Source: Eledone cirrhosa (Eukaryota). From it: a stretch of DNA of 64,000 nucleotides. The position numbers and the translations under genes were made by a program. Under the pieces are notes generated by a model. It ran no database searches, had not been told where the DNA came from, and saw only the letters and a list, made by a program, of their open reading frames with translations. This document shows, piece after piece, positions 37,016 to 51,506 of this stretch (position 1 is the stretch's first letter; each line of letters begins with the position of its first letter). The stretch covers positions 315,828,001 through 315,892,000 of the forward strand of contig OZ024740.1 in the NCBI GenBank assembly GCA_964016885.1, written 5' to 3'.

Positions 37016-37170
37016 TTCACTATTTAACGATCGTTTCTAGGGTATATATGTGTTATAATTGGTATGCATATTTAACAGATCTATGTACAAAATTATACAA
37101 AATTATACAAATTATCAAGATTAAATATACATACCTAACTCATATATACGCCGTCTTCAGAAATAATGAA
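37016..37170 (-). ncRNA. Type I hammerhead ribozyme with very long stem II
   Basis: Minus strand reads UUCAUUAUUU-CUGAAGA-[~116 nt hairpin]-GAA-ACGAUCGU-U-AAAUAGUGAA. Stem I is 10 bp and stem III is a perfect palindrome. The first stem II pair is a C-A mismatch. Confidence 0.75.
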
Positions 37171-37739
37171 GTATATTTATTGATAATAACAACAATTCAA
37201 AATATCAGTTCAAAATTGACCAATGAAAACATAAAGGGTTAAAAAGCAGTTTGGTGTGTGTATATACATGTAAAACCCTACACACATTTTACAATAATGT
37301 GTGTATAATTTGTATGTGCATACTAAAAAGATGGATGCAAATAAAAAATTTCAAGGTTAATATCTCTGTAAGCTTAATGCGCTGATAAGATACGCAATGA
37401 TACTTATGGAGTCAAGCATATAAATATATTTTTTTCATACTCACACATATCAGTATAATCACACATACATGTGCGTATATATATAAATATACACATAACC
37501 ACGAACACACAAACACACACACTCCCCCACTCACATTTATATATGTGGATATAAAATCATAAGCAAATAGAAATTAAGTCACTCACATAAACACACTGGT
37601 ACACACATTTCAAGATCAAGATACAGAAATTAGGTGGGAGGGGGGGGGGAGGGGTCAGTATTAGGTTGTCAGACCAGACAGCCTAATATAAATGTATCTA
37701 TAAATTATGAAAAATAAAAAAATAAAAACAATAAAATAT

Positions 37740-39160
37740 ATTACATATAATATAATGTACATACGCATACAGATATATATACACATACATACATGTACGC
37801 GCACATAGAGATATCTACACATACATACATACACACATATCTATACTGTCATACACACACATACATTTACACGAACATACACATACACATATAAAAAGAT
37901 AAAAATACGGACACACACACGCGCAACACATACACACATACACATATATATATATATATATATATATATATATATATATATATACATATATATACACACA
38001 CACATAGACTCATATATATATACATACACATACATATACTTATACATAAACATATATATCCCACACTCATACCACCATGAAAACACATACAAACATCCAG
38101 ATGTATATATATATATATATATATATATATATATATATATATCAACATACACACACGTACACATATATGTATATATACATACATATATACACACATACAC
38201 ATATATATATACACACACACATAAAATACAGACATGCACATATATATATATATATATATATATTTCATTACTCTTATATATACACATAGTATATATACAT
38301 ACACAACCTCACTTATACACATATACACATAAGTTATATTACAATAATAATAAAGAATAATATATATATATATATATATATATATATACATATATATACA
38401 CACATATACACATATACATACATACACATACATATACATACATACATACACATACATACATACACCTAAATATAAACATATATAAATACACACATACGAA
38501 TAAAGACATATATTCACACATAGACACCTATATACACATATATATATATATATATATATATATATATCTATATACACACACATACACATACATACACATA
38601 TATATATACATACACTTATACACACACGCACACACATACAGACACACATACACACTCACATATATATATATATATATATATATATGTGTATGTGAGTGTG
38701 CGCAAATACATACATATATATACACAACCACATACAAACACACACAAACACATACATATGCATACGTGCACACACACACACATATATCACATAGATACGA
38801 AGATAAACATATAAATAGAGAGACATACAAATATATACAGAACCCATATACACATACATACAAACACGCATATACATATATATACATATATACACACACA
38901 TATATTCCTATATACAAGCATACACATACACACACATATATACATATACATACACATATATATACCACACATTCACATACACGTACATATATAATACATA
39001 TATATACATATATATACATACATATGTATGTACAATCATATATACACACTCAATCTTACATTCATATTTACATGCTCATATATGTATTTTTATATTTAGA
39101 AATAAATACCAAAAAAACTATATAGACACCCATCTACACATATATTCATACATATACACT
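37740..39160. repeat. Compound (TA)/(CA)/(CATA) microsatellite field
   Basis: Low-complexity repeats; the ORFs called here are artefacts. Confidence 0.95.
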
Positions 39161-40411
39161 TACAAAAACAGATGATAATAGTATGGGGGAAAGGGGGGGG
39201 GTTTGGAGAAGGGGATCAAAGTAAATATATGTTTCAAGAAACCTATAATATTTTCCATATCTTAATTCAATGTATGTTCTTACATATTTTCAGTGCTAGG
39301 AAATACGAAATCTATGCATCACAAAATAAAAAAGTATACCATTAATCATATGTCAACTAAACCAAAGATAGTCAACATATTGATTTCCAAGGTGTAAATT
39401 AGTTAGGTTTATAATATTTGAAGCAGAATTATGAAGTCAAACAGTAGTAGATTATTAATTATATTATAACTAAATTAAAGTTAATAACGTTATGGTATCA
39501 ATATTAGGAGATGAATTTAGTAATAGGGAAAAGAAACCCAAATAAAAATAAAATAAAGTATTACATCGGTAGTAGCATATAAATTATATGTTAACTAAGT
39601 TAAAAATTATATATTTATTTCAATAGTATATGTTAATTAGTATATGTTAATTAGGTACACAATACATAAAGCAGATATTGTATTTCATCAATAGCATAAT
39701 ATAATTATAAGCAAATAAAAATCAAAATTAATACGCATACACATACATATACATACACATACACATACATATACATATACATACACATATATATATATAT
39801 ATATACATATATATACACATACATACATATATAGTCACATAAATATACATACAGATACACATACAATACACACATATACATATACATATAGATATACATA
39901 TCTTTTTCAAAAAATTTGCACAGAATATATTAACTAGGTATATATCCAAAAACACCTCCCATTCTATGATTACATGAAATTCTGCAATTCGTCTGTACAA
40001 GGATACTAATTTTAAGCAAATTAAAATTAAAATTAAAGTTTTAGGTTGATTAAAGCTAAAACCAAATAATAAATATATTTCCAAAATGTATATTAATTAG
40101 GTCAATAATACTAAAAATTCTTTCTCCGTCATAGGATACATGATATTATTTTGTTATATTTTATCTGTAAAAGAATTATAATAAAAAAAATTATAATAAA
40201 AGGTTAAACTAAATTAAAAAATTATAATAAAAGGTTAAAATAAGTTAAAATTAATCTATAAATTAAATTACTGAATATATATTAGTAATATTTAAAGGTT
40301 TTTCAAAATTAATGATTACATAATATTTTCTCATCTGTAATAAAATATTAATTAAATTAAATTTATAGGTTAACTAACATTTAAATTAAATTAAATTCTA
40401 GAATAATGTTA

Positions 40412-41450
40412 TTAATTAGGTTTATAATATTTAAATGTTTTTTTTAGTTTATGATTACACGATATAATTAATTCCTGTCTTTTATTTAATAAGATATCCC
40501 TAGACTTCATTATTTCAAATAGTTCTTGGGAACATAATCTACATTCCTTTCTATTATTTTGATAAGGGGTGGCTCTTTTGAGCACACTCCAGGTCAAATC
40601 ATATTTTATATTTTTATTTTTATAACTATTGATTTTTTCTGCTAGAGATGTTGTATTAGCCAGTGCGGCATTTTTAAAGCTATGTTTGTGGGTATTATAC
40701 CTTGTCTTAAAATTGTTAGAGGTAGCTCCTATATATGAGCAAATAGAATCTTTAGTTTTAACATTACATTTATAGACTATGTTGTTAACAAGACAATTCC
40801 CTTTTAATGGGCAGTTTGTTTTGTTTCTACAGTTACATCCTTTCGTTAATTCTGTATTTGAGGAGATATTATTGTTAATTTGATGTACTGGTGGTATACT
40901 TATAGTTTTCTTACATTTATATGCATTATATGCACTTATATTTTGTTTTATGTTATTTGTTGTAGAATATGAGAATTTAACTGTAGACCTATTTAAGATT
41001 TGATGGTATTTGTGGTTTGGCGGGAAGTTTTTCTCAAGGATATAAAAAAATTTTTTAGCAATATTATCCTTAACTTGTAAATTAAAAGGAGCATTATACC
41101 AAGTAACTCGTCTATTACGGTTTCTATGTTGTTTATTATTTTTATTATTTTTATATGTTGTATCATGATTTTTACTAGGAGGAATAATGTTAATGATCTC
41201 ACCACAACTATTTTTAGTTATATTTGTAGATTTAGGTGTTTTATCTTTTTTATTAGGAGTTTTATTATTAATATTTATTATAGTCTTATGATGAGTAGTT
41301 TTTTGAGGGTTACTATACTTTATATTAGAAGATTTAGTATTTTGGGGTATACTGTGGGTGGCATTTAGGTGTGTACTTTTCATTTGGTGTTTGTTGGTAA
41401 TATTATGCTGTATGTTTTCAGTATTTTTAGTAGAAGTTATATACTCTAAT
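40412..41450 (-). mobile_element. Penelope-like (Naiad-type) element, 5'-truncated ORF with linker and GIY-YIG endonuclease but no RT
   Basis: RRVTWYNAPF...FPPNHKYHQILNRSTVKFSYS, CNCRNKTNCPLKGNC, IVY, YIG, FKTRYNTH, CRLCSQE, LLNKRQE, CNH. The frame stays open upstream of the ATG at 41383 (RLEYITS...) up to a (TA)n tract. Confidence 0.88.
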
Positions 41451-49452: not shown

Positions 49453-49761
49453 TTAGGTACACAGTTGATAAGAGACGTCAAACATTAGAACCTGCTTATT
49501 TAGTGATTTTTTCCTGACTTTTTGCGAGGCTTGGAATGTAGACAAAGCTTTATGAAGGCAGTTTGAGAATAATTCACTCTTTTTGTTAATTAAATTTTCA
49601 CAATCAGTAATTATTAAAAGGGTCTCCATGGTACAGAGGTTGCAGTTAGGTGATATTGACGAATTTAAATAAATTCTACTATTACATAACTTCACCCAAG
49701 AAATCGAGTATTTTAAGTTTTTGTCTTTTAATGACCATATAAGTTGTGATAAAGAAGAATC
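49453..49761 (-). pseudogene. Third Naiad-type GIY-YIG remnant (C-terminal half only)
   Basis: In-frame DSSLSQLIWSLKDKNLKYSISW...CNLCTMETLLI...LINKKSELFSNCLHK aligns with the C-termini of the other two ORFs. Confidence 0.8.
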
Positions 49762-51106
49762 CTAATAGAAAATATTTAGAACATATTTAACGATTATAAA
49801 TCGTTAAATATGTTCTAAATATTTTCTAAGTTATATAACGATTATTATTTTATTTAATTTAATTAAATTTGGCTTACCTTCGGGTCAATGAAATCCTTAG
49901 GCTTTCTCTTTCTAATGTTTGCAGACACATTATACTACTATATAAATTTATAAAGAAAATCTAAGATCGCAGACAATTCACTTTTTCACTTTGAATCAGA
50001 TTCTTATCCGTATGATTCAAGAAGTTTGACTTGTATATTTATAGTATATATGTGTTACATGACCTTATTATAATAATTGATCTAAAACCTTAATTTTTAA
50101 CAATATTATCAGTAACTTATTTATTGTATTATATTATGTTTTATATAAATGATAGGTATCACCTTAATCTTTAGATAATATAATCTTTGTTTATATTTAG
50201 ACAAATGCATATATCTAATTTAATAATAAACCTTTTTAAGTTTAATTATAAGGCCTTTTGATGCTTTACGGCATTCTAATTGTTAATCTGAATTTTTTTA
50301 AATTATAACTAATTATTTTATAAATTATATAATGCGAATTATCTTCAATATAATATAAATAATTAAATATATTATAATAAAATTAATAAGAATTACATCC
50401 GAGAGGATGAAAAATAGCATGTTTGCAAATAGTTTAAATATGAATTCATAAAATATGATTTTATAAATTAAATATGATAGTATACTTTAATATTAATACA
50501 GATATTTATAAATTTTTATAGCCTGAAATATACACTTTAATTAATTCATTACTCTGAACTAACTTAAATGATTTGAAAGTTAACGGTCAACCGGATACGT
50601 TTTGATAGTATATATAACTAATTAACTAAGGAAATTAACCTTTATTGATTACACCCAGTTATATTTAGGATTTAGATTAATGAGTATTTCTAGATAATTC
50701 AATGATTCGAGTTTACTCTATCGCATAGCTATGCCCAAATGTATAGTTATGTATAGATATATATAATTCATCCCTCCCTATAATTATAATTATTCCTCTT
50801 TGTCTCCCTTTCCTTGATCAATTCTCTTTTGCTCTCTATACTTCTTCTAGCTATATTTTCCCCTCATCTGTTTTCTCTCTGTCTTTTTTTCTTTCCTCTT
50901 TCTTCAATAATTATTTGAATCTCTAACAGTTATGTAAATTACTGATATGTATTTTTAAGCTTTCTTACACGCACCCTCTGTGTTATATGTAAGTTTTTTC
51001 ATGTATCAATCTTAAAGTATATACATATTGAGTTTTGTCATATCTTACTCACTACCATGACTGGATCTTAACCATCTACTATGTCAGGGTATGTCATGCA
51101 TCATCT

Positions 51107-51173
51107 TATTTTATCTGATGAGGACATACTGTTGAAGTTAGCTCAGTACCTCTGAAATATGTATAATAAAATA
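51107..51173 (+). ncRNA. Type I hammerhead ribozyme
   Basis: UAUUUUAU-CUGAUGA-GGA..UACUG/CAGUA..UCU-GAA-AUAUGUAU-A-AUAAAAUA. Confidence 0.82.
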
Positions 51174-51506
51174 TACTTGATCACAAGAAGTTCTATTTTT
51201 GTTAATATTTTGAATTAATATTAATAACTCCGGAAAACCATTTTTGTTGAGTGCTTCCAATCTATTGTAAAACTAATTCTTTGATTTATTCATTGAATCT
51301 TGTTTAACCTTTAAATATATATATATCTAAAGGTTAAATATATACAGTCTTATACACGCCACGCATCTCAACGTACACCCACTTACATCTCTCTCTCCAC
51401 CACCGGATCTTGTTATCCGGAGATTTACCCATCTGCATTGTCGAGGCTTCCAAACGACTTAAAAATTTTTACCATATATATATATATATATATATATATA
51501 ATTATT

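Follow-up and report, generated by a model that had tools for sequence, protein, structure and literature searches.

Some 14 kb of the 64,000-nt stretch of Eledone cirrhosa DNA analysed here (the window; assembly GCA_964016885.1, contig OZ024740.1, positions 315,828,001 to 315,892,000 of the forward strand) carry seven hammerhead ribozyme motifs (H1–H7) interleaved with three open reading frames (ORF1–ORF3). This region is very probably a pile of five 5′-truncated insertions from five families (A–E) of Hydra-clade Penelope-like elements (PLEs), each with a hammerhead just inside its 3′ end. As judged from sequence alignments, these five insertions are the source of all seven motifs, and they sit mostly in TA repeats. 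Family identity, truncation, inverted arms, 3′ ends on (TA)n and the position of the family E insertion within the 3′ untranslated region (UTR) of family B were observed directly, and each family has two fixed 3′ ends, both beyond the predicted cut site. The kind of element is known, the families are new and the pile-up is ordinary. Such systems are already in print, including a Hydra-clade member from Octopus bimaculoides, Hydra-1_Obim (Craig et al. 2021, PMC8557442; here and below, published systems are compared as described in excerpts of the papers cited).

Hammerhead motifs and encoded proteins

A type I descriptor (stem I, CUGANGA, stem II, GAAA, near-palindromic stem III, UH), written after the motifs had been seen, recovered six intact motifs (H1–H5 and H7, Table 1) between positions 36901 and 51400, compared to a mean of 0.005 and a maximum of one in 200 block-wise dinucleotide shuffles of these 14.5 kb. 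An earlier note on this DNA, made from the letters alone, had proposed the motifs as genuine, and shuffled sequence indeed does not reproduce their number. H1 was matched only when a stem II of more than 45 nt was allowed, its actual stem II being 116 nt long. The type I core (CUGANGA/GAAA/UH with three stems) is intact in six of the eight motifs of the window; in H6 the core reads CUAAAGA and the cut position is a G, and the outlying H8, found with one core mismatch allowed, has the core CUGAUAA. The earlier note was therefore right to call H6 decayed, while H8, which it had listed without any flag of damage, is damaged too. H3 and H6 are 83% alike, and since H4 and H5 are identical over 159 nt, the seven motifs comprise six sequences, which agrees with the proposal of at least five distinct ribozyme variants. 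An Rfam search of the window returned no hammerhead family among 117 matches with E values up to 5, and the 116-nt stem II illustrates that standard searches undercount such ribozymes.

All three ORFs are parts of longer reverse transcriptase–endonuclease (RT-EN) proteins. ORF1 corresponds to residues 468–813 of the family A protein (thumb, linker and endonuclease), its last 252 aa recurring unchanged (100% identity) in all 150 scored genome hits; the full family A frame encodes an intact 813-aa protein. Frame lengths among identical ORF1 copies vary continuously, as 5′ truncation gives, and many are exactly 830 codons. ORF2, open from stop to stop over 44020–44778 (+) with a Met at 44221, represents from that Met onwards the last 185 aa of a 710-aa family B protein (all 150 scored hits are 96–100% identical). 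ORF3 covers only the final ~100 residues of the family C endonuclease, C being an older family whose other copies carry an RT with stops and frameshifts. In other copies of families D and E, a Hydra-type frame lies 1.3–1.5 kb upstream of the hammerhead (D in L144, at 1.3 kb; E in L152 and L153). All motifs of the 14-kb region map to 4–6 kb families in which other copies carry a Hydra-type ORF upstream. The description of the ORFs as lacking an RT thus had to be abandoned, ORF1 and ORF2 being 5′-truncated pieces of families with intact RT-EN frames elsewhere. Their description as GIY-YIG ORFs with a linker held for ORF1 and ORF2 (CxCx5C and GIY-YIG-type strands) and failed for ORF3, which holds neither and is without the linker only through truncation.

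The order within the single ORF is RT followed by a C-terminal GIY-YIG endonuclease, seen in intact frames of families A and B and in damaged copies of C, D and E. Full frames of A and B show RW(K/R), DKT, YRDD, CxCx5C, CxxC and CxH, and the C, D and E proteins show DKT, CxCx5C and CxH. At the N-terminal motif, B reads RWK, A and E read RWR and the C copy reads RWG, the coverage of the D copy beginning beyond it. DKG is modified to DKT, and a CxCx5C linker precedes the endonuclease, in five of five families. As read from the alignment, the endonucleases are without CCHH and have CxxC before the invariant E and CxH after the invariant N, with at most one Cys between the GIY and YIG strands. A C-terminal endonuclease, CxCx5C, DKT and canonical hammerheads point to the Hydra clade rather than to the Naiad label given at first sight. 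The RTs of A–E are only 35–59% identical, which makes them distinct families and bears out the expectation that PLEs of several families are present. In the Atlas neighbours of the proteins (score 0.96–0.98), HTH_animal, GIY-YIG and RVT_1 are found on some of the members. Low-complexity N/K/T/H-rich insertions of ~100 aa were seen in the thumb of family A (P0001, ~480–580) and before the linker of family D (L144:5981–7288), and are absent from family B.

Stem II showed covariation. For families C and E, four of six pairs had changed on both sides (40 cells versus 15.1 in shuffles, with 45 of 67 distinct sequences aligned and a shuffle control that ignores relatedness), and for family B three of ten pairs had done so (25 sequences). 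The covariation evidence from family A is weaker than that from C/E and B: among 22 sequences, 95.8% of stem II cells pair, a single pair shows changes on both strands, and the remaining changes mostly preserve G-U pairs. The minimal H1 sequence was predicted to fold with stem I and the long stem II (−41.9 kcal/mol, z = −5.35). Stem III is self-complementary in all families, with predicted duplex energies of −2.2 to −10.5 kcal/mol, and the active fold was calculated to lie 1.2–6.5 kcal/mol above the minimum in bare motifs and 3.4–11 kcal/mol above it with flanks. These folds would agree with dimeric or protein-assisted cleavage (cf. Cervera and de la Pena 2014, PMC4209133).

Among the first 100 of the 6,186 family A matches (133–155 nt), none was shortened by loss of a candidate intron in the long stem II (GUAUGU ... 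UAG), although PLEs retain introns. A GGTATGTC motif is kept ~27–50 nt upstream of the core in C, E and E-related subfamilies (43158–43166, 51088–51096 and 59963–59971(−)), where it might pair with the 5′ arm of stem II in an off state or serve as a splice donor; the same hexamer pair lies inside the long stem II of A. Between the upstream GGUAUGUC motif and stem II in C/E, five to eight of eight pairs were possible in 100 of 116 copies, with no compensatory change. Other hammerheads, unrelated to A–E, have a stem II of 60–97 nt (L154:2572–2677, L168:8675–8771, L173:6935–7033, L193:6987–7120 and L230:321–420), so long arms recur in this genome.

Anatomy and ends of the insertions

The minus strand carries families A, D and B in head-to-tail order, and D, B and the 3′ end of A meet TA-type runs (Table 1). 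The family A piece is 95–98% identical end to end to full-ORF copies, whose family has a tandem period of 6054–6061 nt; the E and D pieces are 100% and 98–99% identical to other copies, respectively. The minus-strand piece from 44221 to 41734 corresponds to ~3107–4449 of the family B reference copy, and because the plus-strand piece maps to the same reference, ORF2, H6 and H3 belong to one family B copy with an inverted 5′ part. We infer twin priming as the origin of this inversion, and the copy may have been cut off by the adjacent hAT fragment. Family C forms a two-armed insertion beyond that fragment, its arms sharing ~490 nt. Insertion E within the 3′ UTR of B is the sole strict nesting in the pile; the suggestion that these elements repeatedly inserted into each other therefore stands as regards piling up, and as regards nesting for this single case.

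Table 1 Coordinates of elements, hammerheads and frames in the window
Positions	Strand	Feature	Correspondence or copy number
36962..41454	-	Family A element, 3′ 4.5 kb of ~6.05-kb unit, 5′-truncated, 3′ end on (TA)n	
37017..37169	-	H1 hammerhead, 116-nt stem II, stem III ACGAUCGU, predicted cut after 37026 (GUU)	6,186 exact-pattern copies
40412..41458	-	ORF1 (stop to stop), C-terminal part of family A RT-EN	98.6% to P0001
41440..41632	-	Family D 3′-end stub with H2 (41503-41575), no ORF in window	20,564 exact-pattern copies
41734..42251	-	Family B distal 3′ UTR, terminal H3 (41770-41833)	3938-4449 of reference copy L129
42247..42414	-	Family E short inverted arm, H4 (42287-42354), short tail	
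42412..43395	+	Family E main arm, 5′-truncated, H5 (43197-43264), long tail	Interrupts family B in (TA)n run
43392..44221	-	Family B middle 3′ UTR, microsatellite-rich	~3107-3982 of reference copy
44219..45271	+	Family B inverted 5′ segment: ORF2 and internal H6 (45129-45193, CUAAAGA, GUG at cut)	1950-3075 of reference copy
45271..47420	+	hAT-like DNA transposon fragment between families B and C	Weak below-cut-off Pfam hAT-associated matches
47419..49757	-	Family C inverted arm with ORF3 (49453-49761, stop to stop), unrelated insert 47553-48528	L136:5277-6702
49794..51319	+	Family C main arm (3′ UTR), H7 (51106-51174), long tail, 3′ end on (TA)n	L136:6216-7789
59730..60257	.	Two-armed stub of E-related subfamily with damaged H8 (59870-59936, -), no ORF linked to it here	84% identical to E over 230 nt

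The 3′ UTR of the family B reference holds two hammerheads, 433 and 1849 nt after the stop, and both were found in the same sense and 1.4–1.8 kb apart in nine of ten full-length loci. The internal one reads GUG at the cut and is not used as an element end: 26 of 27 distinct copies go on for at least 168 nt past it. The pairing of ORF2 with H6 as its terminal hammerhead was accordingly mistaken, since H3 is the terminal motif of family B. The broader link between hammerheads and element 3′ ends was upheld, the window motifs mapping to family ends and H6 to the 3′ UTR of B. TA runs are frequent in these UTRs (14 in A, 11 in B). No relic hammerheads were found in the 3′ UTRs of A, C, D and E (one copy of each), so that growth of the 3′ UTR by capture finds support in B only.

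Among copies picked by pattern, distances from the predicted cut to the TA run were bimodal. In A, 16 of 29 copies ended at 54–83 nt and 11 at 191–211 nt (one of 30 loci was left out, its stem II exceeding the script limit); in B, 15 of 30 at 36–41 nt and 12 at 100–112 nt; in D, 19 of 30 at 32–43 nt and eight at 122–136 nt; and in C/E, 17 of 30 at 37–57 nt and 11 at 137–158 nt. Close inverted pairs mostly combine one short and one long tail. A (TA)4 run lay within 200 nt downstream of 35 of 41 sampled hammerheads, compared to 21.5% of random positions. As copies continue 30–210 nt past the predicted cut, the elements are not terminated by their ribozymes in the sense first proposed; bimodal 3′ ends past the cut fit the internal priming described for another PLE (PMC11167929).

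The 5′ ends crowd just upstream of the hammerhead, within 20 nt in 12 of 29 family A copies, at 64–76 nt in 12 of 30 of D and within 51 nt in 15 of 30 of B (both arms of an inverted pair were counted, and subfamilies confound the picture for C/E). Copies with the full ORF do not begin at these stub ends but at scattered positions (13 in A, 10 in B), one of the ten in B lying within ~2 nt of the predicted cut. Our guess is that reverse transcription stopping at the folded hammerhead domain might cause the pile-up of 5′ ends. A transcription start as the origin of the stubs finds no support: none of 13 family A full-ORF starts fell within 20 nt upstream of the core (a small sample, some at locus edges).

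Among the first 100 of the 6,186 family A matches, ten back-to-back hammerhead pairs were noted (e.g. G000:C1, 43217572–43217859 and 26896607–26896892), with the inversion junction at most 7 nt from both stem I 5′ strands; they are palindromic insertions of ribozyme and tail only. Families A, B, C and E have in common a TTGAG(C/T)(A/G/T)CT motif, placed either in the long tail or immediately ahead of the start codon (window 43326–43334 and 51247–51255; L024:1831–1839; L127:1658–1666). It also occurs near the 3′ end of the published Hydra-2_Amil, and is a possible protein-binding or priming signal.

The hAT-like fragment is young (40 of 40 scored matches 97–100% identical); its left end is missing in the window and its frame is broken into three pieces. 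The insert at 47553–48528 contains an internal 37-nt tandem repeat, and its ends resemble those of a Helentron-derived non-autonomous element.

Abundance and comparison with known systems

Exact patterns retrieved 6,186 hammerheads of family A, 54,434 of C/E, 6,123 of the B terminal type and 20,564 of D, a total of 87,307, with no match to the reversed-pattern controls in 3.0 Gb for any of the four patterns. In 79 evenly spaced 10-kb stretches of large contigs, the descriptor found 41 hammerheads, compared to 0–1 in five shuffles, which extrapolates to ~155,000 genome-wide (bootstrap 91,000–224,000). No hammerhead was found in 56 of the 79 stretches, whereas one held four and one held five. 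With five intact hammerheads between 37 and 47 kb, this part of the window would rank in the top few percent of sampled stretches, and another locus (L233) has five in 2.1 kb; the nest is a local peak of a kind that is not rare. The picture of a seven-motif nest was thus overstated, the motifs stemming from five insertions and their density being equalled by one of the 79 stretches. The axolotl genome spans about 32 Gb. With at least 29 hammerheads per Mb, this genome is several times as dense in them as that of the axolotl, for which 126,247 type I hammerheads of metazoan non-LTR retrozymes, with a proposed origin from PLE ends, are reported (PMC7229834; bioRxiv 10.64898/2026.07.22.740005).

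Craig et al. (PMC8557442) characterise the Hydra clade by a C-terminal endonuclease, RWK, DKT, CxCx5C, no CCHH, canonical hammerheads and (TA)n insertion. The present families share with it the single RT-EN frame with RWK-type, DKT, CxCx5C, CxxC and CxH motifs, the type I hammerhead near the 3′ end with a palindromic stem III, the (TA)n sites and the truncated, tandem and inverted copies; stem III of family B equals that of Hydra-1_Obim except for the loop base. They differ in unit length (~6.05 kb in A, 4.26 kb in B and ~3.9 kb in E, versus a usual <3 kb and 2.1–2.7 kb in complete published members), the excess being 3′ UTR and short length being given in that paper as a tendency rather than a strict criterion. 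Further differences are the 1.3–3.1 kb from stop to hammerhead, a stem II region of 116 nt in A (versus ~12–25 nt in the published table), the two hammerheads of B and a very large, very young expansion.

The motifs resemble the minimal PLE hammerheads of PMC4209133 in being type I motifs in pLTRs with a dimer-suited palindromic helix III and an extra base before stem II, as well as in their many solo copies and close opposite-strand pairs. They differ in a stem III of 3–4 bp here versus none there, in longer stems I and II and in number (at least 87,000 versus ~2,000–9,000 per genome). For the Poseidon element PAc of Anolis, Frangieh et al. 2024 (PMC11167929) describe two internal RT start sites, uncut RNA as the main template and cleavage only with protein. 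Two start sites downstream of the hammerhead would likewise explain the short and long tails seen here; PAc, however, belongs to another clade, its tails differ by 30–40 nt rather than 70–140 nt, and the start sites here lie in the UTR, not in the ORF. Type I hammerheads and very high copy number are shared with retrozymes (PMC7229834; bioRxiv 10.64898/2026.07.22.740005), but self-alignment of the window gave no short head-to-tail hammerhead monomers. No earlier description of a 116-nt stem II, a two-hammerhead family, 4–6 kb units with TA-rich 3′ UTRs or a stub hot spot was found among titles and abstracts (paywalled papers and bioRxiv supplements lying outside this search), and the words 'ribozyme' and 'Hydra' are absent from the main text of a 2026 octopus repeat annotation.

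Proposed mechanism and rival explanations

Target-primed reverse transcription into (TA)n microsatellites likely made the insertions. The RT-EN protein would nick TA-rich DNA and start copying at two internal sites downstream of the uncut hammerhead, as in PMC11167929, and use of both target strands would give one short-tailed and one long-tailed arm. Each insertion would leave or bring TA runs and thereby provide targets for later ones. The hammerheads would cut poorly as monomers, needing either two paired palindromic stems III or an element protein.

Several observations weigh against this account, or at least temper it. Hydra-clade membership is suggested by motifs and by visual comparison with the published alignment, which agrees; yet Pfam, NCBIfam and PDB sequence searches gave no RT or GIY-YIG match for the proteins, and Pfam no GIY-YIG match for any of the three window ORFs. 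With flanks of 70/30 nt, the predicted probability of stem I is at most 0.02 for H1–H5 and H7, so that hammerhead activity is not implied by the fold. Copies picked by pattern must contain the 3′ strand of stem I, and ends exactly at the cut cannot appear among them; in 12 stretches chosen by the family A ORF, every aligned hammerhead extends beyond the cut. Cross-family clustering is real but modest, about twofold at 3–10 kb. In C1:0–14.4 Mb, 13 of 54 insertions had another family's hammerhead within 3 kb (local-shift null 5.2, reached in 1 of 1000) and 26 of 54 within 10 kb (null 12.4, 0 of 1000), whereas within 1.5 kb the count was five of 54 versus 2.9 (202 of 1000), and a second test at that distance was also null (eight seen, 6.6 expected).

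It is highly improbable that the nest is made of free-standing GIY-YIG elements without an RT, of Naiad type or otherwise, that end in their ribozymes. The window alone has no RT frame and places a same-sense hammerhead downstream of each ORF, and the Naiad clade shares the GIY-YIG endonuclease, the (TA)n bias and the inverted and tandem layout; but the full-length copies, in which ORF1 and ORF2 are the C-terminal parts of intact RT-EN frames, refute it; frame lengths that vary continuously and copies that end beyond the cut also speak against it, and the features specific to Naiads in PMC8557442 (N-terminal endonuclease, DKA, CxC and IFD, no canonical hammerhead) do not fit here. The chance of accidental matches in AT-rich sequence, or of an assembly artefact, is close to nil even in a microsatellite-rich region of ~25–30% GC: for the motifs, accident is refuted by the shuffles, the reversed-pattern controls and the covariation, and family A sequence is also present in independent public runs. 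A selected or co-opted host RNA device, a ribozyme bank on a host transcript, is very hard to credit as well; the density of intact motifs would suit it, but the pieces are very young repeats, the motifs point both ways, two are damaged and equal clusters exist elsewhere.

Rather more weight, though still little, is due to a route in which the hammerheads do cleave the precursor, and the resulting RNA fragments are circularised by ligation and then copied around more than once (model of Cervera and de la Pena 2014, PMC4209133), the nest recording that route. This is a question of mechanism, compatible with the Hydra family assignment. Intact cores in at least 87,307 copies, head-to-tail units, palindromic stems III able to pair between two hammerheads and the family B copy beginning ~2 nt from the predicted cut all speak for it, whereas the fixed 3′ ends can be explained without circles, by internal priming with uncut RNA as the main template (PMC11167929) and the 5′ ends of full-ORF copies are scattered. 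Under the preferred reading of target-primed insertion, a further, two-part proposal strikes us as unlikely when taken jointly: that an ancestral B copy landed in a TA run at the 3′ end of a relative, the two then moving as one unit, and that the hammerhead domain stops the RT, leaving stubs. Capture would leave the internal hammerhead, with its fixed G at the cut, relic tail and TA run, 1.4–1.8 kb before the working one; RT stops would make 40–50% of copies ribozyme stubs of 150–250 nt, with ~100,000 hammerheads genome-wide; and the 116-nt arm of one family would be under structural selection.

The nest itself being ordinary, its value is practical. Family A, intact and very young by the identity of its scored hits, offers a test case for what PLEs use their hammerheads for, in a clade with no biochemistry in the literature consulted, and thousands of natural copies supply 3′ and 5′ end statistics.

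Elsewhere in the window, a single-exon frame of 453 aa encoding a WD40 beta-propeller (8061–9422(+)) is probably a host gene in an intron-rich genome. About 4 kb of nearly pure A/T microsatellite (29706–33837; 0% GC over 30001–32000) gave no match to any of the four hammerhead patterns. Clusters of SINE-like repeats and LINE-type reverse transcriptase fragments occur at 53006–54694, 24585–25776 and 59277–59747, and the stub with H8 adjoins a LINE-type reverse transcriptase fragment.

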